Of a DNA stretch of 35,276 nucleotides, positions 1 to 32,593 are shown one piece after another (position 1 is the stretch's first letter; the number at the start of each line of letters is the position of its first letter). The DNA comes from Jimgerdemannia flammicorona (taxonomy: Eukaryota): assembly GCA_003990765.1 (NCBI GenBank), contig RBNJ01000255.1, positions 1 to 35,276 of the forward strand, read 5' to 3'. The notes below the pieces were generated by a model. The model searched no databases. It was not told the DNA's origin and worked only from the letters and a program-made list of their open reading frames with translations. The position numbers were made by a program, and so were the translations under genes.

Positions 1-149
1 CCAGCTCCGCCCCCTCTTCCACCGCGGCCCCCCGCCAGCAGGCCCCTCATACTTCCCCCCAAGCCTGGGCCTCTCCCCACTTGCTGCCATTCAAATGCTC
101 CAGGGCCGCCCTGCCCAGTACGCACCTCTGGATGCTCGTTGGTCGCCAT
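1..149 (-). CDS. N-terminus of a putative LINE ORF1, Gly/Arg-rich (MATNEHPEVRTGQGGPGAFEWQQVGRGPGLGGSMRGLLAGGRGGRGGGA...), partial
   Basis: Manual translation from ATG at 149, open to the window edge; WxxV.R and RGG motifs; CpGs retained. Not in the ORF track (no stop within the window). Confidence 0.4.
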   Translation of the reverse strand, partial: MATNEHPEVRTGQGGPGAFEWQQVGRGPGLGGSMRGLLAGGRGGRGGGA

Positions 150-1211
150 ATTACTAGTAGCTTTCTCCAGAAACCGTGTCGAAAGTGTTGCTAAAGGGTT
201 GTGTAACCTGAATGTTACTGGAGAAAGGACTTCCTGCACCTCATTCTGTGCACCATGCTCTCCCTACCACCAGGGGAAACCCAACCATATGCCAACGACC
301 GAAAGCACATACCTGAGAACCCAACGTATGTATAAGGCCATGCCTGAGCTGAATAGAATAGCCCCTACCATCTCAAAGAGAATGACAGGCAAAGAAAAAA
401 CCCTCATCAAAGCACAATACAGTGGGCAGGGCCTGGTTCTCCCAGTCGAGGTGAGTAAAGGACTTACACATGAGGTGGGAGGAAACCCCCAATACCCCAC
501 TACTCAAGCCTGTGGGCCTCAATCACGTTGCCATGTCAGCTCCCGGTTCCAGTTGAGTGTAGCCAAGACACCTGAAATGGGTAGCCTCGGCCCCCCCGAC
601 CCCCCCTGATGACTGGGGCCTCACCTTGCTATCTGCCAAAAGAAGCCGAGAGTGACACCTACCACCTAACTACGCCGCACCAATCAAAGGCCCCACCAAA
701 GCAGCACCTGCCCCAGCCCCGATGACCACCCCCAGCCTGGCACCCTACTGGTTCACCGTAATCGCCCTTCCACCTATCTGTGACGGCCATCTCCCCTCCC
801 ATCCCGACAACACCTGAAAAGCAGTCACCTACGCCAGAACCACGCTCGCCGGGAAGCTCGCCAAAGCCAGAGGGCCCCACCACAGGCACCAAGGACCTGC
901 AGGTAACCTACACTGAGCACTTGACGCCCAAGGTCAGCCAACTCCCTACGTAGCCCGAGACACACCAAGACAACTCCTTGTTGGCGATGGCAAAAGGAAG
1001 AAGGCGCCACACCAAAACGGGTACACCCCAGACACAGCTGAAGGCATCAGAATCCGCGAAAAAGTGGAGGAAGCACTGATCCGACACCGATAAAGAGGTA
1101 ACTCATCACCATTGCCCTCCTCCCACCATGCCCCTGCAGGCACAGCAAACCAACCCAAGGTAGAGGGGGTAATATTAGGGGAAAGGGGACTTGGAAGGTC
1201 ACCTACCAAAC
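1..1211 (-). mobile_element. 5' part of a putative LINE-like element (long 5'UTR plus start of a putative ORF1), runs off the left edge
   Basis: 236-1211 is highly similar to the 5' ~1 kb of the poly(A) retroposon copies at 4411-5605 and 10431-11649 but lacks their first ~33 nt; left of ~236 it diverges and leads into an ATG-initiated open frame. Confidence 0.6.
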
Positions 1212-2784: not shown

Positions 2785-3445
2785 GTAACTTGGGGCTACC
2801 CTTATGCTACTGGCAGAGGGCAGCAAATTTTGCATGCTCTCTCTACCAACCCTGCTAACCCCCAGCCTGGATATAGGCTGCTGGAGGGAGCCCCACCCAT
2901 CCCAGACACTTGTGGCTTAGGGCTACTCCTTGCTGCCAGCAGAGAGCTACAAATTTTGCATATTCTCTCTACCAACCCTGCTAACCCCCAGCCTGGATAT
3001 AGGCTGCTGGAGGGAGCCCCACCCATCCCAGATACTTGTGGCTTAGGGCTATCCCTTGCTGTCAGCAAAGAGCTACAAATTTTGCATGTTCTCTCTACCA
3101 ACTCCATATCTACCAATCCTGCTAACTGACTCCACCCACTGACCTGGGCACTAATAGCTTGGGGCTGTCTCTTGCTACTGATAGAGGACTGCAAATTTTG
3201 TACACTCTCTCTGCCTACCCCCCCCCCTCTGCCAATCCCCCTATCCCAGACACTTATGGCTTGGGACTGCCCCTTACTACTAGTAGAGGGCTGCAAATTT
3301 TGCACACTCTCTTTGCTGACCCTGTGCCTACCAACTTGTCCACTGACCCAGACACTAACAGCTTAGGGCTGCTCCTTGCTGCTAGTGGAGAGCCACAAAT
3401 TTTGCATGCTTCCTTTGTTACTACTAACCCTGCTGACCACTACTC
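2785..3445. repeat. Six-unit 102-126 bp tandem repeat with core CAAATTTTGCA
   Basis: Core at 2824, 2950, 3076, 3192, 3294 and 3396 (periods 126, 126, 116, 102, 102); first two units nearly identical. Confidence 0.9.
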
Positions 3446-4410: not shown

Positions 4411-5605
4411 TTTTTTTTTTTTTTTTTTTTGTTTAATGGACTCTATGTCCTGCAGATTTTTATTGGAAGGGAACCTTGACTATATAGGCCAAAACCCTCC
4501 CCCACCACCCATCAAGCACTGGCCCCCCATTAACCTAGGCTAGCTATTGTCCAGCAGCTCGACCATACTAGGTGTAACAGGGCAAAGTAGCCCACACCTC
4601 ATTCTGCACACCATGCTCTCCCTACCACCAGGGGAAATTCAGCCATATGCCAACGACCGAAAGCACATGCCCAAGAACCCAATGTATGTACAAGACCATG
4701 TCCAAGCTGAATAAAATAGCCCCTGCCACCCCAAAGAGAATGACAGGCAAAGAAAAACTCCTCATCAAAGTATAATACAGTGGGTAGGACCTGGTTCTTC
4801 CAGTTGAGGTGAGTAGAGAACTTATGTGAGGCAGAAGGAGACCCCCAATACCCCACTACTCAAGCCTGTGGGTCTTGATCACATTGCCATATCAGCTCTC
4901 GGTTCTAGTTGAGTGTAGCTAAGATGTCTAAAATGGATAGCCTCGGGCCCCCCAACCCCCTCTGACGACCAGGGCCCAACTCCACAAATCGCCAAAAGAA
5001 GCCGAGAGTGATACCTACCACCTTACTGCACCACACCAATCAAAAGGCCCCACCGAAGCAGCACCCACCCCAGCCCCAATGACTGCCCCCAGTCTGGCAC
5101 CCTACTGATTCACTATAATTGCCCTTCCTCCTATCTGTGACAGCCATCTCTCCTCCCATCCTGACATCATCTAAAAAACAGTCACTTATGCCAGAACTGT
5201 GCTTGCTGGGAAGCTCGCCAAAGCCAGAGGGCCCCACCACAGGTACCGAGGACCTGCAGGTAACCTATACTGAGCACTTGATGCCTAAGGTCAGCCGACT
5301 CTCTACATAGCCCGAGACACACCGAGACAACTCCTTGTTGGCAATGGCAAAAGGAAGAAGATACTGCACCAAAATGGGCACACCCTAGATGCAGCTGAAG
5401 GTACCAGAATCTGTGAAAAAGTGGAGGAAGTACTGATCCAACACCAATAAAGGGGCAACTCATCACTATTGCCCTCCTCCTACTATGCCCCTATAGGCAC
5501 AGCAAATCAACCCAAGGTAGAGGGGGTAATATTAGGGAAAAGGAGACTTGGAAGGTTGCCTACCAAACCTTGTGACCAGTAAGGTAGTGGAGAAAGGAGC
5601 CTCTG
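4411..5605 (-). mobile_element. 1.2-kb non-autonomous non-LTR retroposon, copy 2, inserted in the hAT
   Basis: T-tract at 4408-4430 (poly(A) on minus); 17-bp TSD TATTATCAGAGTTGTTT at 4394-4410 and 5606-5622; colinear with 10431-11649. Confidence 0.93.
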
Positions 5606-6517: not shown

Positions 6518-7273
6518 TGTAATAACTCTCACTTCTACCCCTCTCTTATCCTTTAGATAATTAGGAAAGTGGACTATTACTTAGGGACTTAGTACACAAT
6601 GTGTACCAAGAAGCCTTCAGTTTGAGAAAGTGCTCACTTATAAGTAAGTGTAGCAGTAGTGCCTTCTGTTTCAAAGGTCTTTCTCTGGTACCCTATTTTG
6701 AGGGTCTTGTTCTTTGCTATACACAGACTGAATTTGCCTTGGAATTCAGATTCAATGAGTTTACTTAAGTCTTTGGAGATTTATATACTGGTCTCAGTTC
6801 TGATAGAAGTTAGCTAGGCTTCTAGAGTTTAGTCAGAAACACTAGAGTCACTTAGATGTCATTACTAAAACTCAGGGGAATGTGTATATATGGGGGGGAC
6901 TTGATTCTTATATCAAGGATTGAACTAAAACTGTTTTATTTTGGATGAAAAACTAGGGGGTATTTATACAAGTTGGTCTGCGATTTCTGACTAAGTATGA
7001 GTGACTAATTTGGTAACTATAATGAGGTTTGTGATCACAACCTTTGTCAGGTGGTTTTTGGTAAAGAATATCTTTGTAATCAGGACCTCAATTACTAGAC
7101 AATGATCAGCAGCTATGGCAACAGTTGCTGTGGCGCCGATTGTTGGGGATAAGCTAGATATTATTTTTCGCATCGTTTCACATCATTCATCATTTGTATG
7201 TCATGCTTTGTTTGTATGATGATGTCATCATCCTCAGGTCACATGATTGCTTGTTATGCCTCATTCTATTATA
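6518..7273 (-). repeat. E1 3' LTR (756 bp)
   Basis: Direct repeat of 16077-16832; plus-strand TGTAAT...ATTATA (terminal CA mutated to TA); PPT AAGGAGAGAAGGA adjacent at 7274-7286. Confidence 0.95.
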
Positions 7274-13022: not shown

Positions 13023-13400
13023 CTAGGGTGTCAGGGTGATCTTTCTGCCTTTGTGGGTCAGGTTAATCTCATTGGTTCTCCAGTTGATGTCTGGGTCGTA
13101 CTGGGTCAACCAGGCTTTTCCTAAGATAATATCTTGTCCTGGGAGGTCTATAATACTGAAGTCCAACTTCTCTTGATATTTGCCAATCTTGAGCAAAAGG
13201 TCTTTACAGATCTTGGTCAATGGTATAGTCTTTTCATCACCAAAGGTAACACTTCTTTTCTTGGTAGTTGGTCTGCTTTGGGCTTCAATTCTCTTGGCTG
13301 TCTTAGTACTGATGTAGTTTCCAGTAGCACTACTATTAAGCAAGACATTGATATTTTGTCTGTGGACTTGGCCTGTGAACTTGATGCAACTGTTCTCCTT
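13023..13400 (-). pseudogene. pol: E1 aspartic protease
   Basis: INVLLNSSATGNYI (decayed LDSGA), DIILGKAWL, PDINW. Confidence 0.9.
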
Positions 13401-13561
13401 CTTGATAGTATTGAGCTCTTCATCTTCATTGTTGACCCAATTGCTGTCAGTCTCCTCGAAGTCAGTTTCTCCCATCCTTCACAAGGAGGGTTGTCTTATT
13501 TGGGTTCCTCAGTCTGTTGGGCTTAGCATTTCTCAGATTGAATTTTGAAAACTTTGGAGAG

Positions 13562-13660
13562 GCATATATGACATTCACCAACATATTCCATACAGTACAT
13601 TCAAATAGAATGAGGGCATTGTCCTTATGGTGCATAACCATCTGCAATTCTCTTGTACCA
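13562..13660 (-). other. E1 Cys/His zinc-finger-like module (WYKRIADGYAP*GQCPHSI*MYCMEYVGECHIC)
   Basis: Manual translation, in frame with gag-dUTPase; closely matches the E2 motif at 24262-24360. Confidence 0.75.
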
Positions 13661-13709
13661 GTTTTCATTATCTTCCTTTATAGTAGTGACCTTTTGACTG
13701 AGAGGTTTG

Positions 13710-14125
13710 TTGGTAGATCCAAATCCTTTCTTGCTACAGTCTGTCTGAGAGAGTTCAGAGACTTCTTCAATAGTAAGATCTTGATAAATTTCTTCGATGA
13801 TTGCTTGGGCAATTCTTTGACCTGTTTTGACTTCAAATGATGTGTCTCCAAAATTTCACAAGATAACATGGATTTTACCAGTAAATACTTGGTCAACTAC
13901 TCCTCCTCCTAGTCCAATGTTGAACTCTTTAGCTAGGCTACTTCACTCAGCATAGCAGATGTATATTCCTTTGGGAGCTTGTATTGTAATTCCTGTTCAC
14001 ACTGTAGTATTGATACTTGGTGGAATAGTGAGATCTTGGCTGCTGTAGAGGTCATATCTAGCATTGGTTGGGTGAGCCTTAGTGAGGATGGTAGCCTTGT
14101 ACCATATCTTCTATACTTTAATAAT
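13710..14125 (-). pseudogene. dut: E1 trimeric dUTPase, in frame with Gag
   Basis: All five motifs visible through stops: ARYDL, *SSLA, GVVDQVFTGKI, GQRIAQ, CSKKGFGST. Missed by the ORF track. Confidence 0.92.
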
Positions 14126-15975
14126 ATTCTTGGGGTTTTTCTTTTCTGGATCTTCTCTAATAACAGTAATATTCTGGTTACTGGGTTTGCCTGTTCTGTT
14201 CTTCTTCTCAGGGCATCTGAATGAGATGTGTCCTACCTTCTTGCAGATGAAGTACAATCCCTTTTTATGGAGCTGCTTCTTCTCATCCTCAGTGGGAGGT
14301 TTGGGTCCTCTGGGATTTTGCTGGTTCCTTTGATCATTCCTTTGATCATATCTTTGATCATTCCTTTGATTATTTCTCCTGGTAGGATTCCTCCTATCTT
14401 GGTTATCCTTCTTGTGTTCTTGATTTCGTGGAGCTTGTGTTACAAGGATTTCGCAGGCTCTTCTTTGTACTTGGGCAAAGTACCATAAGTAGTGGGGGCA
14501 TCCTTGGGGAAGACCTTGTTCCTTGATCTTCTGGGAGAGCCAGTCTGGTAGGGCTGTAAAGAGATGGTTGGCTCTGGTACCATTGATGGCCAAATTGTTT
14601 TCCTGGTAGGTAAGTCCAACGGTTTTGAGGTAAGCATCCATTCTGGTGGCAAAGGTCTCTAGATTCTCTTTGCCATTCTTGTGGAACTTCATCTGGGACA
14701 GTTTGTTCCAAGTTTCTTGTATGTAGGCCGCATTTTGGAATTTAGTCAATAGTAAGGCCTTGAGTCTTGGGCCTGCTTCATAGTCATCCCAACCTGGTCT
14801 ATTGTTGCTAGGTACTTGTCCAATAACTTGGAGGCGGGCTTCCCAGGTTACTGGGTATTGTTCCAAGGTTCACCAGAATTTGGCTGCTGTTCTAGTGAAG
14901 AATGTAGCTACTGTTTCTACTTGTGCTGTTGATGTGGCAAACAGTTGTTAGAGGGTGCTGTTCTGATTGTTGGTGAGCATTCCTATAGGTACTCAGTTAT
15001 CATTCTATTGGTTTACTTGGTAGTCTATATTAACTGCATTGATGAAGTTTTCAATGTCACTGTTTTTTCACTGAATGTTAGAATTTGCAAGATCTTGGTT
15101 GGCTTGTTCTGTTCAGCAATCTGTCCTACTATCCCTGCTAGTGCTGCTAGCTGGGTAGTCAGTGCTGTAATATTGACATCTACTATTGTGTTAACTATTG
15201 GTGGTGGGCCTGTTGGGGTAGATTCTCCTAAAGATTGTTCTGCTTGGTGGGGTTGTGGGGCTATATGACTTGGGGTTACTTGGTTCCCAGATATCAAGTC
15301 AAAGAGTTCTGTGAGAGAGGGTAAACCAAACCTCTATATAGGTAGCTGAGTTGGTTCTGGGGTCTGATCTTCTTGATCTGTAGTTCCTTGGTAAATTTCT
15401 AGGCCTGCTGTTCCTCATTGGCTATCATCAGACTGGTAACCTGTAGAGTCTTCATCTGACTTCCTTTCCTGATGAGATAGTACATCCTTGTACTAACTAG
15501 GTCCTTTAAAGAGGATATTAGTCTCTGACTGGGTAAATGGGCCTACTCCTTGTTCAGCAGTAGGGGATGGTTGGCCTGCTTGCTCATTCTCATACCTAGT
15601 TATGGCAGAGGCATAGTATATAACTAGCCTGTAATAGAGGGAGGTCTTGGTTGGGGTATGATGATATCTATCAGAGACAATCTACTTGACAGCTGCTTCT
15701 CTTGCAGCAGAGGGTGTGATATAATCTAAAAAATCCTGGGTGACTGCAGCAGTAGATTCTGGGGTCCTAGTGGTTCCAATGTATCCTTGGAGGAGTTTGT
15801 AGAACCTATGGCAGCTGACAATATTCCTAAGTCCTGGGTAGTATGTCCTAAAGACCTGATATAAATCCTTATAAGCCTGGTCAATTACAAGTTGATGAGT
15901 CCTTGGGTCTGTGGTTTTCTGATACCACCTGATCCTAATGACAAGGACTTCTCTGGCTCTGGTTTGAGGATCCAC
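14126..15975 (-). pseudogene. gag: E1 gag with long N-terminal extension and zinc knuckle
   Basis: LTFSE..DIENFI motif near 15070 (frameshift in an A-run); zinc knuckle YFICKKVGHISFRC (CX2CX4HX4C with first C>Y). Confidence 0.8.
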
Positions 15976-16076: not shown

Positions 16077-16832
16077 TGTAATAACTCTCACTTCTACCCC
16101 TCTCTTATCCTTTGGATAATTAGGGAAGTGGACTATTACTTAGGGACTTAGTACACAATGTGTACCAAGAAGCCTTCAGTTTGAGGAAGCACTCACTTAT
16201 AAATAAGTATAGTGGCAGTGCCTTCTGTTTCAAAGGTCTTTCTCTGGTGCCCTATTTTGAGGGTCTTGTTCTTTGCTGTGCACAGACTGAATTCGCCTTG
16301 GAATTCAGGTTCAATGGATTTACTTAAGTCTTTGGAGATTTATATACCAGTCTCAGTTCTGGCAGAAGTTAGCTAGGCTTCTGGAGTTTAATCAGAAACA
16401 CTAGAGTCACTTAGATGTCATTACTAAGACTCAGGGGAATGTATGTGTATAGGGGGGACTTGATTCTTGTATCAAGGACTGAACTAAAACTGCTTTATTT
16501 TGGATGGAAAACTGGGGGGTATTTATACAAGTTGGTCTGTGATTTCTGACTAAGTATGAGTGACTAATTTGGTAACTATAATGAGGTTTGTGATCGTGAC
16601 CTTTGTCAGGTGGTTTTTGGTAAAGAATATCTTTGTGATCAGGACCTCAATTACTAGGCAATGATCAGCAGCTGTGGCAACAGTTGCTGCGGCACCGATT
16701 GTTGGGGATAAGCTGGATATCGTTTTCCGCGTCGTTTCGCATCGTTCGTCATTAGTATGTCGCGCTTCGTTCGTATGATGACGTCATCGCCGTCGGGTCA
16801 CGTGATCGCTCGTCGCGCCTCGTTCTATTACA
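16077..16832 (-). repeat. E1 5' LTR (756 bp) with TATA box (~16520-16527), CRE-like TGACGTCA (16779-16786) and CACGTG E-box (16799-16804)
   Basis: TG...CA ends; direct repeat of 6518-7273; motifs read directly. Confidence 0.95.
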
Positions 16833-18113: not shown

Positions 18114-18782
18114 GTTCCAGTTGAGTGTAGCTAAGACATCTGATCTAGATAGCCTTGGGTCCCCTGACTACTCCTAATAACTGAAGCCTAATCTCATAAA
18201 TTACTAAAAATAGTCAAAAGTGATACCTACCACCTAACTACTCTATATCAATTAGACCCTAATAACCACTCTTAGCCTAATATTCTACTGGTCTACTATA
18301 ATTACTCTTCTTCCTATCTGTAATGACCATCTCTTCTCCCATCCTGACTCTATCTAAAAAGTAGTTATCTATATCAGAATCACACTCACCAAAAAGCTCA
18401 CCAAAGCTCAGAGAGCTCTACTATAAATACCAGAGATCTGCAAATAATCTATACTGGCACTTGATGCCTAAGATTAACTGACTCTATATATAGCCTATGA
18501 CTTACTAGATAATATTTTATTAATGATAGCAAAGGGAAGAAAGTATAACATCAAAATAAGAATACTTCAGATATAGCTGAAGGTATCAAAAATTATAAAA
18601 AAGTGAAGAAGATATTGATCTAATACTAATAAAGAGACAACTCATCACCATTGTCTCTCTTTCACTATCCTGTAATAGATATAGTAAATCAACTTAAGGT
18701 AGAGAGAGTAAAAGTTGTAGAAAGTAGACTTAAAAGATTATCTACTAAACTTTGTAACTAGTAAGATAGTGGAGAAAGAAGT
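18114..18782 (-). mobile_element. Heavily mutated 5' fragment of the same retroposon/LINE family (copy 4), cut by the hAT end
   Basis: Colinear with 4902-5600 with extensive C>T/G>A change; ends in GGAGAAAGAAG versus GGAGAAAGGAG. Confidence 0.85.
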
Positions 18783-19142: not shown

Positions 19143-20652
19143 TATTATAAAGAGAGATACTTTATTAAAGTTACATAGATTATATATTTCTCTATGTTAC
19201 TAGATAAATGATATAAATCTGATAGAATGACATAAGGTTACATACTGGCATATTGAGTTACTATCTCAATACTCTTACTCAATAAGATATATAATCCAAA
19301 AAAAAGAATACAATGTGTACTTTTCAAAAAAAAGAACAAACTAAAGTAAACTAAATATAACTAATAGAATGCTATCTAGATAACTATAGAAGGTTAAAAT
19401 TCTCTACTTATAAGCATGAAAATAAGTAAAGAATATAGTAAAAGACTAGTAATATAGAAATTTTCATGAGTCAAAAAGTATTTCAAAATATATCCAAAAA
19501 TATTCATAAGTAAAGAATATAATATATATAATCTACTTATAGATAAGAGATACATATAATTATCTACTTCACAATACATGAATCTATTGTTAAGGAGATA
19601 TCTATTAATTCTTTTATTCTATAGTCATGCTACTTATTTGATATTGTATAGTTCTCTGCATAATCTATATATGAGCTTGCTATTTTTATTCTTACAATTG
19701 ATAGACATATAGTTTAGTGTCTATGTCATAATTCAGAAATACTATCTTGATGTCTATTTGATAGATTTTAAGATCATATACTATATCAATTATAAGGAGT
19801 ATTCTAAGTAAAGTAAGCTTAAATACTAGTAAAAATGTCTTATTATAGTCTATACTATAATTCTGTAAATAACTCTTAGTAACAAAATAAGCTTTATATC
19901 ACTCTATATTATTATCAGTATTGTACTTTATTCTATATACCCACTTGAATCTAATTACTTGATGATTTGGCAAAAGAGGTACTAAATCCCAGATATCATT
20001 CTTGATGAGCAAGTTATATTCCTCATCTATTATATATTTTTATTTCTTATTATTAATATTACTTATAGCTTCATCATATGTATTTAGCTCACTAGATATT
20101 ATGATATATATATATTCATATGCTTTGACATAGTTTATATAGTCCTTATATTGGTGTTTAGGGCTTACTAAAATATTCTAATAATTTTCTAAATTGGAAC
20201 AAGTTTCTCAGCAAATTTTGGAGTACTTTTGCTTATATACTCCTTATAAAGGATCTCTCATCACTAGGCTTACTATCATCTTCATCCTCAATCTCTATTA
20301 TTCTTAGCTCAGCCAACTTTGGCTCAGATACATATAGTGAATAATTTTCAACTAGCTATATTTGAAAAATATTTTTCTTTACCACTGAAGAGATAGATGA
20401 CAGTTGTTCTGATTGCTATATTTATACTGGCTGGAATGTAGAGCTTGTTTCAACTAGTACTTCCACATAGATCTCCAAGCTCTTTTCTCTAAACTATATA
20501 TTATGCAAAATGACTATATATTACTTACATAGATTTCATAGCCTATATACTTTGTTGGAATATCCAAGAAATATATACTTACTCACCTTGAGTTCAAATT
20601 TATATCAAATAGTATTACTTTTATTAAGGACATATGCATCATATCTAAATAT
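19143..20652 (-). mobile_element. Ty1/copia remnant: SH3-like domain, N-terminal RT, internal deletion, probable PPT (~19272-19283) and short 3' LTR (left boundary uncertain)
   Basis: IFLGYSNKVYRL; DEEYNLLIKNDIWDLV..KWVYRIK; YKAYFVTKSY..DYNKTF..QIDIKIVFLN, the transition-decayed form of YKARFVAKGY..DY.ETF..QMD.K.AFLN. Confidence 0.85.
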
Positions 20653-21099
20653 TGTAATGTAGCGGATGCTAAGATGAGCAAGTATGTCAGATTTCTTTAT
20701 CTTGAATTCTTGTCTTCTTGACTCCCAGAGTCAGTAGTTCCTTGAGGTCAAATGTATTTTTAAAGAGGTAATCCTGAAGGTCCTTTTATCGGTATACTTG
20801 TTCTTTTTCTAACACTTTCGATCTGAGGTTTATTTACTTAAAGATACTACAAGTTTGCTAGCTATGAGATGGCTACTGAGTTATGTGGCTAAGTTATGAG
20901 TCATTTAGATAATGTCTAGAAATTTAGACAATGTTGAAATGCTATACTAAATTGGGGTGTTCGATTTGGACAATGTCTAGAAATTTAGACAATGTCAGAA
21001 TTGGTGACTGCTAACTATAAGGCTATACTACTTTGGGAATGGGTGCGATCAAGTGTTTATTCCCTATTTCCTTCTTCCTAATTCAGCTATACTATCACA
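20653..21099 (-). repeat. E2 3' LTR (447 bp; 11-bp deletion removes the TATA region)
   Basis: TG...CA; direct repeat of 26236-26693; PPT-like AGAAGGAAG at 21101-21109; internal duplicated ACAATGTCTAGAAATTTAG-like units. Confidence 0.93.
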
Positions 21100-21136
21100 A
21101 CTTCCTTCTGAATAGATGGTCTCGTCTCTGAGGCAT

Positions 21137-22226: not shown

Positions 22227-23700
22227 GGTGATTTTGTAGGAGTGGGGTCCTTCGGGGTGTCTATGAGAGGGCGTCGGCATTGGCATTGGTTCTTCCAGGG
22301 TAGTGGGTGATTGTGGCATCATATGCTTACAGTTTCATAATCCATCAGATATAGATTCCTTTGGGCTCACTAGTAGTAAGCAACCAGGTGAGTGCTGAGT
22401 GGTCTGTCTGGATGGTAAAGTGTCTTCTAGCTAGGTAGTAGTGGAACTTCTCTACAGCCCAGATGACTGTAAGGCATTCCAGCTTATAAGACTCATAGGA
22501 TTGCTCTGCCCTGCGAGTACCTTGGCTGAGATAGGCTACCATGTATTCGATGCTATTCTTCTTTTGTGCGAGGACAGCTCCAAGTCCCATTGCACTGGCA
22601 TCTGTCTGCAGAATAAACTCTTGAGTCCAGTTGGGTCTTCTCAGGATTGGGGCCTGAGTCAATCTGATCTTGAGCTTGTCAAAAGCTAGTTACTGCTGCT
22701 GAGTCCACTGGAACTTGACCTCTTTTCTGAACAGATCATAGATAGGACTGGCAATGTGGAAGAACCTTCTAATAAATCTTCTGTAGTAGAATACAAGTCC
22801 CATGAAGGCTCGGGCTTCAGTGACACTGGTAGGTACTGGGTATGCTGCTACTGTCTTGATCTTTGTAGGGTCTATATGTGTTCCTTCACGGTTGATGATG
22901 TATCCAAGGTATGCGATTTTTTCTTCTCCAAACTTGCATTTCTTGGGCTTGATATAGAGGCCATGTTTGCAAAGCCTTCTGAGGATTTCCTCAGTATAGT
23001 CTAAGTGCTCTTTGGCTGTTCGGCTGAAGATGATCACATCATCTACGTATACCATCATCCATTTCTCCATAACATCTCTGAAGATACTATTTATCATTTG
23101 CTGGAAGCTTGCTGGTGCATTGCATATTCCAAAGAGCATATGGAGATAGATGTAGGTTCCATCAGGGATGATGAAGGCTGATCTTTTGCTGGCTTCTGGT
23201 ATAAGGCTGATTTGGTAGAATCCTGAGAATATGTCCAAGGTGGTGTAGAATTGTGATTCATTCCCCAGTATGATGAGAATATCACCGATGTTGGGCAATA
23301 GTTGTCTGTCCTTCTCTGTGACCTCATTGAGTCTTCTCTAATCTGTGCAGAGTCTTGGTGCAAATTCTCCTGGTTGGCTTCCTTTCTTTGATGCAAGGAC
23401 AATGGGAGAGGACCAAGGGCTGCTGGCTTCTTCAATGATACCGGATTCCTCCATTTCCTTGATTTCTGTTTTGAGCCATTCTCTGTATGCTGGTGGAATG
23501 GGGCGGGCCTTCTGATAGATTGGTTTTGCATCTTCAGTATTGACATTATGATAATACAAGGGTTTCTTGGTCTTGATGTCCTTGAAATCCATGGCCAGTA
23601 CATCCTTGAATATATGCAAAAGGCTCTGCAATTCTTCCCTGAGGGGAAAGTTTCTTCTGATTGTATAGGTGTGTTTGTCTTGGCTTTCCTCCTTCTTGTG
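22219..23700 (-). pseudogene. pol: E2 reverse transcriptase and RNase H
   Basis: SSPWSSPIV, SGFYQI, FGICNAPASFQ, YVDD, TDASAMGLGAVL, TDHSAL, NADALS. Confidence 0.95.
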
Positions 23701-23739
23701 CTCCAATTCAGTGATCTTAGTTGCTATGAGAACTCCTCT

Positions 23740-24155
23740 TCCTGTAGAGCCAAATTCAGCTCTTCCTTGTTGAGTTTGTCTGATGTTTGCGACCTCCTTG
23801 ATTCTTGGATTAAGGACAGGTAGGATGAGCATTTGTGTCAGCCGATCCTTCTTCCTTACTTCAAATGGGATTATTGGGTTGTGGTTCCTGGCGAGGAGAA
23901 GGATTTCTCCAGTATAATTCAAATTGATGACTCCTCCTTCTATAGATATTTCACTTTTCACCAGGCTACTCCTTGTCTTGAGGATTCTGATATGGTTTGG
24001 TGGGATGGTTACTTCAATTCCTGTTCCTAGAATGGTAGTGGTCTGTGGTTCGAGTATTGTGTGTGTAGTAGTATATAGGTCCATTCCAGCTGTATTCTCC
24101 AACTTGTACTGTGGCATGACTGCATCAGGGTGAATCTTTCGTATCTTGACTGTGA
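23740..24155 (-). pseudogene. dut: E2 dUTPase between protease and RT
   Basis: AGMDL, TRSSL, GGVINLNYTGEI, DRLTQ, RAEFGSTG within ORF 23338-24507. Confidence 0.93.
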
Positions 24156-24261
24156 TATCTTCATCCTCATCATCACTGTCATCCAATAACTCTGGTGGTC
24201 CGTCTTCTAGTTCCTCCTGGTTCTTCTTTGGCTTGTTGGTGATCTTCTTCACCTCAATGAT

Positions 24262-24360
24262 ATATAAGTAGCAGTGATCCAAGTGCTGGGCACAGTACAT
24301 TCTTTCACCATGGGGGCACCTTCCTAGTGGGGCATATCCATCTGCGATTCTTGTATACCA
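24262..24360 (-). other. E2 Cys/His zinc-finger-like module (WYTRIADGYAPLGRCPHGERMYCAQHLDHCYLY)
   Basis: Within ORF 23338-24507; final TAT plausibly from TGT; homologous to 13562-13660. Confidence 0.75.
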
Positions 24361-24489
24361 TTCTTCCTCTGTCAATTGCTTGCCTTTTCCTTTCTTTGTT
24401 GTAACTATATAGGCTTCTTCTTCTTGGTCTTCCTCTATCTCCAGGCAGACTTCTTTATGGATGTTGATGGGAATTCTGATCTTTTTTCC

Positions 24490-24790
24490 CCAGTAGATGA
24501 TTTGCATCTTCTATGCACTGAGGTCGATCATTGCCTTGGCTTTGTGAAGCCACTGATTGCTGATGAGGATATCGTAGTTGGTTGCATTGGTGACAATGAC
24601 ATCCACAGGGATAGTAGCTTCACTGAACTTGATTGGTATATCCCGGATCTTTCCCAAAGGTGTTGCTCATATTCCATTGGCCGTGATAAACACCAATTTG
24701 GTGGCTTCTTCTATCTTCCAGCCTAGGTGGTCCTTGATCTGGCAGGTAGCATAGGCTGATGTTTTTCAATTATCTTCACTCTCTTTATCT
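24490..24790 (-). pseudogene. pol: E2 protease remnant lacking the D-T/S-G active site
   Basis: SAYATCQIK joined in frame to DHLGWKI..TANG..PLGKI..YDILISNQWL; alignment with the E3 protease shows ~22 codons missing. Confidence 0.8.
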
Positions 24791-24799
24791 GAATCTTCT

Positions 24800-26179
24800 T
24801 GTGCATTGTTGGCTTCAACTATTCTCCAACCTTGGTCCTTACCGATGTCTGAGATTCCTGTTCTCATTTATTGTCTGAATGTGGGAATTTCTGCTAGTTG
24901 GCTGAAGGTTGCATTGACTTTTTGGTCCTTGAGGTCCTTGAAGATATCATACTTAAAGGTCTTGCTTTTGTGCAATTTCTGCTCCTTCTTTCCTTCACTT
25001 GATGGGGTAGTGTTTCGGATGATATCCTCCACTGCTCGATCAAGTTCGGCATCCTGTTCCAGCTCCATTTCTTGATCAGCTTTGCTCTGCTGGATCTCAT
25101 TTCCGATGTCGACTTCCAGTTGCTTTGTTTGTGTCTGGGTCTTCTTAGGAGGTCTGCCTGGAGGTCTTTTATAGGGGCTGGATTGGATATCCTTCTTGCT
25201 TGAGGTGGCAAGGTAAGCTTCCCATTCCTCCCTCTCTTCCTCAGATTCTCCAATCTCCTCAAAGGTGATAGTGTTTGCTTGTTCGCAGTTCCTGGTTGCA
25301 TTGCTTGGATTGGCCTTTCGCTTAGTTTCTATCATACATTTGGAGGCATAGTGGCCTTCTTCTCTACAATTATAGTATGTTATTGATTGTCTTGCATTTG
25401 TAGCAGCAAACTTCTGTACTAGCTTCTTCTTGAATTCCTTGACTATATCACTGAGGTGTGCTGTCATTTCTGCAAACTGCTTGGCCAGTTCCTCTATTGG
25501 GTTGACCCTTCTCTGATCTTGTGGTTGTTGTTATATATTTCGATTAACTATAGCAGCTGGAACTATATTGGTAATTCTTGGTGCTTGCTCAATTTTTACT
25601 CCAGTTATCCTTTTCATTATATGGCCTTGAGGGTGTCTGGCAGTCCAGTATCTTTGGGCATAGGTAACTTTCTGTCCCAGGTCCAGTGGTGTTGGGGTAG
25701 ATCAAATGGCTAAAGCGATTTCTTAGTGAATACCTTTCATGAAGGTATTCTTGGCCACTTGGTCTTGAACTGCATTGGGATAGTCAGTAAGGACTATTTG
25801 GTGTCGGATTCTTGTATAGAATGTGTTTGGGTCTTCTGACATTCCTTGGCAGATGGTATTCAGTTGATCTTTGAGTGCCTGTTTGATTTCATCTGTGTAG
25901 TAGGTTACCCAGAGCCAGGCCTTGAAGGCTAGGATTCTTGCTGGATCATTAGCTCCTTATATATTAGCTGTAGTAAACACAGTTCTTGCTGGGCCTCAGA
26001 GGCTCACAGGGAGTAGGGCTACTTGTTGTACTACTGATAAGGTTCTTACAGCAGCATACTGCTTGAAATCATCAATGAAGGTGATGATTGATTCATCAGA
26101 GATATATCCATAGAATATGGGTGGTCTCATATCTATTCTGTCTGATTGTGTTGTGTGGGTTCTGATTGCGGTTGTTCAT
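24800..26179 (-). pseudogene. gag: E2 gag
   Basis: PPIFYGY..ITFIDDF; zinc knuckle YYNCREEGHYASKC. Confidence 0.85.
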
Positions 26180-26232: not shown

Positions 26233-26235
26233 AGT

Positions 26236-26693
26236 TGTAATGTAGTAGATGCTAAGATGGGCAAGTACGTCAGATTTCTTTATCTTGAATTCTTGTCTTC
26301 TTGACTTCCAGAGTCAGTAGTTCCTTGAGGTCAAATGTATTTTTAAAGAGGTAATCCCGAAGGTCCTTTTATTGGTATACTTGTTCTTTTTCTAACACTT
26401 TCGATCTGAGATTTATTCACTCAAAGATACTGGGTTATTTATATAAGTTTGCTAGCTATGAGATGGCTACTGAGTTATGCAGCTAAGTTATGAGTCATTT
26501 AGATAATGTCTAGAAATTTAGATAATGTCGAAATGCTATACTAAATCGGGGTGTTTGATTTGGACAATGTCTAGAAATTTAGACAATGTTGGAATCGGTG
26601 ACTGCTAACTATAAGGCTATACTACTTTGGGAATGGGTGTGATCAAGTGTCTATTCCCTATTTCCTTCTTCCTAATTTGGCTATACTGCCACA
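26236..26693 (-). repeat. E2 5' LTR (458 bp)
   Basis: TG...CA; direct repeat of 20653-21099; TATAAATAA on minus at ~26435-26443. Confidence 0.93.
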
Positions 26694-26697
26694 ATAT

Positions 26698-30499: not shown

Positions 30500-30880
30500 G
30501 AAAGACATGTCAGCACCTACTTACATGGAGACATTGGAGGACAAAAAGCAAAAATCCTCATAGATACAGGAGCAGCTGTCTGTGTTATTGCCAAACGATT
30601 CTTGGACACCCTCCAATGGCCCATTGACGGACCATCCAACCTCAGCATCATAGTAGCAGATGGAGCCCGAACTCAACCCCTTGGAGAAGTATGAAATATC
30701 ACCATCTCCCTTGGACACATTCAGTTCTCTATCCCCAAAGCTGTTGTCACCGAAGCTGTCACCTATGATATGATTCTTGGCACCAACTGGATGAAGGAAA
30801 TGAATGCAGTTGTTGATATTGGCCAACAAGTACTCAAGTTCGACTACCGAGGCAAGAAGTATAGAGTTAAAGTGACCAGC
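30500..30880 (+). pseudogene. pol: E3 aspartic protease
   Basis: ILIDTGAAVCVI, VADG, YDMILGTNWM. Confidence 0.93.
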
Positions 30881-32188
30881 TATGAGCAATCAAAGAAGAA
30901 GAAGAAGGTCACTATTCAAGAAGAATATGCCAGCAGTGAGGAGTCTACTACAGAAGAAGAAGAAGAATCCAAAGATGGAAATGATCCCAGACTCAATCCA
31001 CGAATTAACCTGGTGGATGACAGACTAGAAGACAATATGTGGACCAAGAATACTATCCCTATCACCATTGGAGCCATTGCAGGAGAAGCCAAAGGATGCC
31101 CTACATGCCTCAAGAGACACAAGTATCCTGAGCACTCCTCCAAGATCATGGGAAAAAGGAAATTGCCTGGTGCAGCCTGCCCAGAATGCAGAAGAAAGAA
31201 GAAGAAATGCAGACATGTTCCAGAAACACCTGTGACCAAAGCTGCAGGAGTACAAGCAATTTGGGGTCAAGAATCATCTGAGGAAGAAGAAACTTCTGAT
31301 CAAGAAGTTCCTGAACAAGAAGCACCTGATGAAGAAGAAGTCTCCAAACTCATTCCCTGGGATGACCCTCGCTGGACACCACCTGAAGACAATGACCCCT
31401 GAAATACAGAGAAAGGACCCAGCACCATCACCATTATCCCTAAGAAAGAAACCCACCAAGAGAAAGCTTTTCAGCTAGGAAGATGTCCACATCAAATGGT
31501 CTTCCACTCTCTCTGAGACTACTGCTATCAGTGTCATCTGTTGGATCAATAAGAAAGACAGAGACCTCAGAGACCAGAACCCCCAACTACTCTTGCACAG
31601 TCCACCACCTTTCAAGAGGTCACCACATGGTTACAAAGTCAATTTAGGGGACAAGGCTTCTTCACCCAAACAGAAATATACCCCTTATCTACCCTTCCCC
31701 CAACCTATGATCAAGATGGGTACCAATTCCCAAGACAACAAGAGATAAATAGCTGGGAACATCATTTCCAAGCAATGGAATATTGTAACCATAGGAGACA
31801 CCCTGATTGCCGAGACTGCAGACATCAGAAGATTCACCTCAGTCATAATATTGCAGTGCACACCTTGAAGAAAGGAGATAACCGAAGCCAGATCTGAAAA
31901 AGTCAGATTCGAAAAAGCCAGACCAAGAAGCCCGGAAAAAGAATCCTCAAGATCTACGATTTGGGAGAAGACATCCTAGCTCTCGTCAGACATGTAACCC
32001 ACTAAGGATGGGCAGAAGATGCCACCAACTTCATGGAAGCCCTTGACCCTACAGGAAGGAGGGGAATCAATTACCTCCGAGACCCCTCTACTGGAGCCAG
32101 ATGGCCACACCTCAACCTTAGAGCTTGGAGGCTTTCTGCTAGTAGAGCTTCAGCTCTAGGAAAGCCTGAACTCAGCAAGGACATTGCC

Positions 32189-32593
32189 CAGTATGCCCTG
32201 CTGCACTCCAAGGCCAAACCCCCAGCCAAAGCCCACCCAGAGGATGTAGGATATGATCTTCACAGCCTGGAGAATGAATCTATCAAGTCTGGAAAAACCT
32301 TCATGGTCAGAATGGGATTAGCCATGCAACCACCTCAAGGAGCTTATATTCAACTGACCTCAAGGTCTGGACTTGCCAGACAAGGGATAACTGTAGAAGG
32401 AGGAACCATTGACCCTGAATATACAGGTGAAATCAAGGTTATCCTACACAACAGCAGTGCAGAATGGCACCGAATCATTAGAGGACAGAAGATTGCCCAA
32501 GCAGTCTTCATGAAGGTTAAGACCCCACAGTTACAGGAAGTCTCGGAACTAACTAAAGGAACAAGACAAGCCAAGGGATTTGGAAGTTCAGAC
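32189..32593 (+). CDS. dut: E3 dUTPase domain (stop-free) within pol
   Basis: VGYDL, SRSGLA, GGTIDPEYTGEI, GQKIAQ, RQAKGFGSS. Confidence 0.95.

Follow-up and report, generated by a model that had tools for sequence, protein, structure and literature searches.

A conserved, putatively zinc-binding module between dUTPase and protease in decayed Ty3/gypsy retrotransposons of Jimgerdemannia flammicorona

What is the short Cys- and His-bearing segment that sits beside the dUTPase in two decayed retrotransposons of Jimgerdemannia flammicorona, and what might it contribute to the polyproteins that carry it? The question is raised by a single 35,276-nucleotide contig (RBNJ01000255.1), analyzed over its whole length and referred to below as the window. 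This 35-kb stretch is a nest of decayed LTR retrotransposons, of which two, E1 and E2, lie on the minus strand and a third, E3, on the plus strand. A first-pass annotation had singled out a conserved module in E1 and E2, together with a shorter version in E3, and had proposed that it behaves as an independent mobile domain under selection. The features on which an answer depends are listed here, element by element.

6518-6817, minus strand: LTR segment of E1, a direct repeat of 16077-16376 at 93% identity
9914-10087, minus strand: integrase H2C2 zinc finger of E1 (PF17921, E 5e-19), 3.5 kb downstream of the module and distinct from it
13050-13412, minus strand: retropepsin-like protease of E1 (PF08284), downstream of the module and in the -1 frame relative to it
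13526-13699 (core 13562-13660), minus strand: module of E1, in frame with the upstream dUTPase
13712-14098, minus strand: dUTPase of E1 (PF00692, 91.7 bits), immediately upstream of the module and sharing its frame
20652-21100, minus strand: LTR of E2, paired with 26235-26694 at 94-95% identity; the pair bounds E2
23740-24123, minus strand: dUTPase of E2 (PF00692, 69.3 bits), downstream of the module and sharing its frame
24208-24399 (core 24262-24360), minus strand: module of E2, inside an open 390-codon frame (23338-24510)
24451-24732, minus strand: decayed protease of E2, upstream of the module; it has no Pfam match and aligns with the E3 protease (tblastx chain, read-through)
25333-25374, minus strand: Gag CCHC zinc knuckle of E2 (PF00098, E 0.0027), distinct from the module
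30527-30796, plus strand: protease of E3 (PF13975/PF13650)
31475-31534, plus strand: candidate module remnant of E3, with the knuckle and CxxC only and an in-frame stop; statistically unsupported
32213-32590, plus strand: dUTPase of E3 (PF00692, 89.7 bits)

The three dUTPases all score above the PF00692 gathering cut-off of 22 bits. E1 is an element of ~9.9 kb bounded by the LTR segments 6518-6817 and 16077-16376, and E3 extends from ~28 kb to the end of the window. Pfam was run on open frames and on read-throughs with stops masked as X, and recovered dUTPase, retropepsin, RT, RT_RNaseH, Integrase_H2C2, SH3_Tf2-1 and Chromo in E1; the Gag CCHC knuckle, dUTPase, RT and RNase H in E2; and retropepsin, dUTPase, RT, RNase H and integrase H2C2 in E3. 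A chromodomain is visible in E1 and in neither of the others, E2 being truncated or decayed and E3 being cut by the window end. The hosts of the module are dUTPase-carrying Ty3/gypsy LTR retrotransposons, chromovirus-like in the case of E1, and the three elements are mutually distant, with RT identities by tblastx of ~34% between E1 and E2 and 43% between E2 and E3. The E3 dUTPase is 41-44% identical to E1-type dUTPases and only 25% identical to the E2 enzyme, despite the E2-like order of protease, then dUTPase and RT. Because this dUTPase is E1-like while its order is E2-like, the position of dUTPase in pol has changed among fairly close dUTPase lineages.

The manner of decay is recorded in the LTRs. 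The LTR pairs of E1 and E2 show 47 internal differences, every one of them a transition and none a transversion; 24 of the 47 fall in CpA/TpG and 11 in CpG contexts, and the observed/expected CpG ratio of the window is 0.18. Transition-only differences and low CpG together point to deaminase-type or RIP-like decay of the elements, which is also consistent with the kind of stops and Cys/His losses found in the module copies. Elsewhere in the window an extra LTR-like repeat family is represented by two copies 4357 bp apart (237-1242 and 4595-5599), with an array of 102-126-nt units between them (2805-3426), and by a third copy at 18114-18781 that is 72-73% identical; the ORFs tested in this region contain no Pfam domain. 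A look-up of sequencing runs for the window returned one run with 0.05 of the sampled words, and no RNA run was listed.

The similarity between the E1 and E2 segments is dense and sharply bounded. The translations given by the first-pass annotation were reproduced exactly from both minus-strand stretches, and its count of 17 identical residues among the first 23 holds even if no stop is counted; at the nucleotide level, 51 of 69 bases agree. It had read the E1 stops as TGA, which is right for the second (13601-13603) but not for the first, a TAA at 13625-13627; the frame then ends at a further TAA, 13523-13525. The E2 copy carries a Tyr at the last conserved Cys position. Both copies in the window are dead, E1 by its stops and E2 by the lost Cys. 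The immediate flanks, which had been called unalignable, have 2 of 20 residues in common upstream and 3 of 14 downstream (5 of 34 together). The module provides the only blastn match between E1 and E2 (75 nt, 73%, E 7e-7), and by tblastx it reaches 63 bits, with 49% identity over 45 residues compared to ~34% for RT. A further measure comes from an independent HMM, built solely from the metagenome sequences P0009, P0010 and L001 and thus excluding the window sequences and their close relatives. Run over all six frames, it scores the E1 module at 52.7 bits (E 5e-18) and the E2 module at 54.3 bits (E 1.5e-18). The module of E1 and E2 is very probably a real, conserved protein domain. The notion that the similarity is a chance resemblance or a meaningless linker may draw on the E3 'copy', which scores at chance level, but it is refuted for E1 and E2 by independent E-values of 1e-18 and by 14 relatives, 11 of them with a dUTPase or protease domain detected beside the module, and it keeps practically no probability.

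These relatives were gathered from several collections. A full HMMER scan of 1.84 billion representative proteins with a 63-residue E2 segment returned nine sequences at E<=1e-3 (best 1.6e-11). A profile search of a 5.8-billion protein set yielded eight matches among 7998 scored candidates, three of which were new, and a scan of JGI metagenome contigs found two relatives among 11 pattern-matching stretches. The viral-contig scan produced 21 pattern matches and no relative, a word-indexed search of longer proteins with the E2 segment gave no match, and the ESM Atlas offered a best score of 0.78 for the module part, a lead only, and nothing usable for the whole of P0014. The total is 14 relatives, 12 proteins and two metagenome loci, all of which derive from metagenomes or assemblies. 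Of the 12 proteins, 10 were tested for clustering, and every one of these is the sole member of its 90% cluster. Among them, P0005 is a near-identical, uninterrupted counterpart of the Gag-dUTPase-module frame of E1, and P0007 is a counterpart of the E2 arrangement. The family is rare and apparently undescribed; the databases searched contain few eukaryotic transposon proteins. One metagenome locus, L001, has a peculiarity of its own: the frame that holds its module (2-616, plus strand) matches PF15805, the SCNM1 acidic C-terminal region, over residues 58-87 (30.2 bits against a cut-off of 27). This match falls in a G-W...D...G-x-W stretch, and a similar stretch occurs in a separate frame of the same locus (818-1120).

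The shorter version reported for E3 is present in the sequence as written, but it is not demonstrable as a copy. It keeps the G-R-C-P-H and C-x2-C pieces without the N-terminal half, and its scores are 2.3 bits against the family HMM and 0.2 bits against the independent HMM (E 0.09-0.3). On these scores a third module copy in E3 was rejected; the segment is a possible relic at most. A second Cys-rich stretch lies between the protease and dUTPase of E3 (31097-31216, plus strand), in which two CxxC pairs are followed by a run of Lys and Arg. It matches no Pfam family and recurs in L001 at 659-775, with 39% identity over 36 residues and 60% over 15. This stretch is a candidate for a further small zinc module of that linker.

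Granted that the similarity is real, it could in principle reside in the nucleic acid, in the form of a cis-acting RNA or DNA element or of a patch that was swapped recently. Such a reading would account for the sole blastn match between E1 and E2, and in E1 the module does lie ~40 nt upstream of the end of ORF1; E2, however, has no frame junction at the module. Identical residues are encoded by identical codons in 11 of 20 cases in the module and 53 of 93 in RT (Fisher p = 1). The first-pass remark that shared codons differ mostly at third positions is therefore true but trivial, the share of identical codons being that of RT, and for the same reason the blastn match reflects only dense amino-acid identity and there is no sign of a recent transfer of the module. 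The module-coding RNAs of E1 and E2 fold worse than their shuffles (z +1.49 and +1.83), on which grounds RNA structure was rejected, and the distant relatives conserve the protein pattern, including Cys and His. A cis-element or an exchanged patch is already disfavoured and must be considered very improbable. It was thus the protein on which selection acted.

The signature of the protein, [WF]-Y-x-[RK]-[IL]-x-[DE]-G-Y-x-P-x-G-x-C-P-H-G ... M-Y ... C-x2-C, describes a self-contained mini-domain of ~45-50 residues. Counted over 16 copies (the 14 relatives plus E1 and E2), the knuckle Cys is present in all 16 and the His in 14, while the CxxC retains its first Cys in 15 and its second in 13; this second Cys is absent in E2, L002 and P0011, elements with other signs of decay. 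The Cys after M-Y is kept in only eight copies and the His three residues further on in only seven, so that neither is an essential ligand. The expectation that Cys and His are conserved throughout the family is thus borne out for four of the six positions, the other two being variable. AlphaFold2 models of two subfamilies, based on shallow alignments of 12 and 11 rows, share one topology at mean pLDDT values of 79.3 and 76.9. The predicted fold is compact: an N-terminal helix over W-Y...D-G and a loop or short hairpin bearing C-P-H are followed by two helices, one short and one long, the long one starting at C-x2-C. The module is probably zinc-binding. We infer a single zinc held in a treble-clef-like manner by a C-H-C-C site, to which the knuckle would contribute its Cys and His and the long helix its N-terminal pair of Cys. 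The secondary structure of both models fits a treble clef, with the knuckle in a loop or hairpin and the CxxC at a helix start, and no fold match was obtained. Counted from the sequences, the core has a net charge of about +2 to +3, far below that of a nucleocapsid protein.

Does this pattern correspond to a domain already described? A Pfam search with ten module sequences at E<=10 gave no consistent family, only scattered single matches below cut-off. Nor is it a Gag CCHC knuckle or an integrase finger, as had been stated: both of these are found separately, the former in E2 (PF00098) and the latter in E1 (PF17921). The Gag CCHC knuckle is likewise a small retroelement zinc motif with basic flanks, but it is an 18-residue element requiring C-x2-C-x4-H-x4-C, whereas the module spans ~45 residues with helices and reads C-x-H-x12-C-x2-C; PF00098 is absent at E<=10 in the ten sequences. 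For the integrase H2C2/HHCC fingers (PF17921, PF09337; H-x(3-7)-H ... C-x2-C), the module lacks the His pair and has no Pfam match. Duplication of a Gag segment that contains G-C-P-H (E1 near 14500; P0005, P0014) was rejected at an hhalign probability of 7% over 9 columns. Searches by structure were equally unproductive. Foldseek against the PDB gave best E-values of 3.8 and 7.0 for the two models, VIA-align over 48,161 chains reached a best Z of 3.4, and the BFVD fold search a best E of 1.3; the absence of a match in these searches does not make the fold new.

The only PDB sequence match of the family profile is to the tandem finger of tristetraprolin, over Y-K...G-R-C-P-[YH]-G, which raises the possibility that the module is a strongly derived CCCH RNA-binding finger that lost two ligands and recruited the downstream CxxC. 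The match, however, is not significant (E 4.1, 10.5 bits), and even at E<=10 the Pfam search brings up no CCCH model. Of the ligands in the C-x8-C-x5-C-x3-H pattern, the first and third positions are not Cys in the module, and the distances to the following Cys and His are also different. A CCCH ancestry is improbable on these grounds.

A dUTPase lies within ~60 residues of the module in 10 of the 14 relatives. It is directly upstream in nine of them (P0004, P0005, P0006, P0008, P0012, P0013, P0014, P0015 and L002) and in E1, and in all of these the GFGST motif of the dUTPase precedes the knuckle Cys by 31-52 residues. Where the sequence continues, a protease follows the module (P0008, P0012, P0014, L002 and E1), and P0014 displays the full order of Gag, CCHC, dUTPase, module and protease. 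E2 and P0007 mirror this order: the end of the protease is followed after ~30 residues by the module, an acidic linker, dUTPase and RT. The remaining relatives, P0009, P0010, P0011 and L001, are fragments, and no dUTPase is seen in their available sequence. Two arrangements emerge, Gag-dUTPase-module-PR (E1 type) and PR-module-dUTPase-RT (E2 type). The PF00692 coordinates confirm that the module follows dUTPase in E1 and precedes it in E2, the observation from which the first-pass annotation had derived an independent mobile domain. Opposite sides of the dUTPase are indeed occupied in E1 and E2, yet wherever its neighbors are visible the module is always between dUTPase and protease. Independent mobility is thereby overstated and only partly supported: the module forms the centre of a single block of three domains, which occurs in mirrored orders. 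Interconverting the two mirrored orders needs more than one simple move, which fits domain shuffling and is not proof that the module itself is mobile. Module identity between the two types, at 24 of 43 residues, does not clearly exceed the 17-21 of 44 found within the E1 type, the numbers being small.

Translation places the module always in frame with its neighbors, with one variable boundary. For E1, as for P0005, the frame that encodes Gag, dUTPase and module closes immediately behind the module, with the protease in the -1 frame (in E1, 13050-13478, minus strand); in this decayed copy the module frame and the protease frame do not overlap. Module and protease share one frame in P0008, P0012, P0014, L002 and E2.

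What, then, could such a module do? The chances are about even that it constitutes a new zinc-binding accessory mini-domain of the Gag-Pol polyprotein in a dUTPase-carrying Ty3/gypsy lineage. As to its task, our tentative preference, argued by analogy and short of an even bet, is that it serves as a nucleic-acid tether for dUTPase. In this mechanism the module would bind one zinc through its C-H-C-C site and, together with its Lys-rich flanks, would form an extra contact to nucleic acid. That contact would keep the trimeric dUTPase, or a Gag-dUTPase-module or PR-module-dUTPase precursor, at the RNA or cDNA inside the particle, so that dUTP would be removed where reverse transcription happens. 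In the E1 family, where the module ends ORF1, it would be made in Gag-like amounts as the C-terminus of a Gag-dUTPase protein. The tether is favored because of the constant dUTPase adjacency, the Lys-rich flanks, the implied Gag-level expression and the 'extra Zn knuckle' of Juno elements. Several observations run against it. The net charge is modest, two of the six Cys/His positions are variable, and neither fold nor sequence matches a known nucleic-acid-binding finger. The module is as near the protease as it is to dUTPase, which is possibly not its partner at all, and four of the 14 relatives have no dUTPase in the available fragment.

A more ambitious possibility is that the module co-evolved with retroelement dUTPases as the aiming part of a two-part counter-defense cassette for uracil control. 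As such it might recognize cDNA that is single-stranded or contains uracil, or it might engage a host protein, either a uracil-DNA glycosylase or a deaminase-type restriction factor; the dUTPase-module pair would then have been inserted anew at differing positions in pol. That the decay is by transitions only (47 of 47) shows that deaminase-type mutation pressure acted on the elements, without linking that pressure to the module. We regard this proposal as distinctly unlikely.

The main rival to the tether is a role on the protease side or in protein docking, a status it owes to the modest charge and to the equal closeness of the protease. Under this proposal the module would be a folded zinc spacer that acts through protein-protein contacts or protease regulation, controlling precursor dimerization or cleavage, or docking dUTPase or another partner. 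Positional parallels would be the region upstream of retroviral proteases, or the domain that ends betaretroviral proteases. Wherever a protease is visible (E1, E2, P0008, P0012, P0014, L002 and the N-terminus of P0007), it is ~30-55 residues away; the module is only mildly basic; and the E1 module sits at the gag/pol frame junction. The geometry, however, is not fixed, since the protease follows the module in the E1-type order and precedes it in the E2 type. A spacer of this kind has perhaps a modest chance of being right, and the nucleic-acid tether is kept here as the working proposal.

How dUTPase reaches the site of reverse transcription, and why some retroelements carry it, are only partly understood, and a module beside dUTPase in 10 of 14 relatives and both window copies offers a concrete entry point that is small and easy to express. 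Transposon annotation pipelines now leave this domain unannotated as 'linker', and the mirrored orders dUTPase-module-PR and PR-module-dUTPase illustrate how domains are shuffled within one polyprotein. The gain for retroelement biology is modest and does not amount to a new type of system, since retroelement polyproteins are already known to carry extra zinc modules.

Among such accessory domains, the G-patch at the C-terminus of betaretroviral protease is a further comparison: it is small, adjoins the protease of retroelements that carry a dUTPase, and has a presumed contact with nucleic acid. The G-patch is glycine-rich, with a consensus of ~45 residues and no metal site. Both it and the module are small and protease-adjacent; the module differs in having four conserved Cys/His, only three of its Gly positions are conserved, and with no Pfam match at E<=10 a G-patch was rejected.

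Closer parallels come from elements that combine zinc segments with dUTPase. Searches of CC-licensed PMC articles and bioRxiv preprints brought up no description of the motif, and the nearest is a remark on an 'extra Zn-knuckle' in the bdelloid rotifer LTR retrotransposons Juno1 and Juno2 (PMC5408684). A frog LTR paper (PMC4131045) and a Repbase review (PMC5753468) yielded nothing on the module. On the dUTPase side, two reports place the enzyme at varying pol positions in Ty3/gypsy elements of basidiomycete and other fungi (PMC2864245; PMC2774666), and a third describes dUTPase enriched with retroelement domains in Entomophthora (bioRxiv 10.1101/2023.09.13.557621). The Juno knuckle follows dUTPase and lies upstream of RT, with dUTPase between PR and RT (PMC5408684). 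It thus has the same pol position as the E2-type module except for the side of dUTPase on which it sits, a comparison by description, and it may be either the same module or a CCHC knuckle; the Juno elements, moreover, lack a chromodomain, whereas E1 has one. Among the closest systems is the nucleocapsid-dUTPase fusion of the betaretrovirus Mason-Pfizer monkey virus (M-PMV), which binds oligonucleotides as a trimer (PMC1802613). The two have in common a zinc-knuckle segment, putative in the module, that flexible linkers attach covalently to the trimeric dUTPase of a retroelement, in a gag-proximal frame beside the protease. In the virus, the zinc segment is the ordinary CCHC nucleocapsid, N-terminal to dUTPase. 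The module, by contrast, coexists with a separate Gag CCHC knuckle, has its putative ligands arranged as C-x-H ... C-x2-C in a different predicted fold, and is found on either side of dUTPase.
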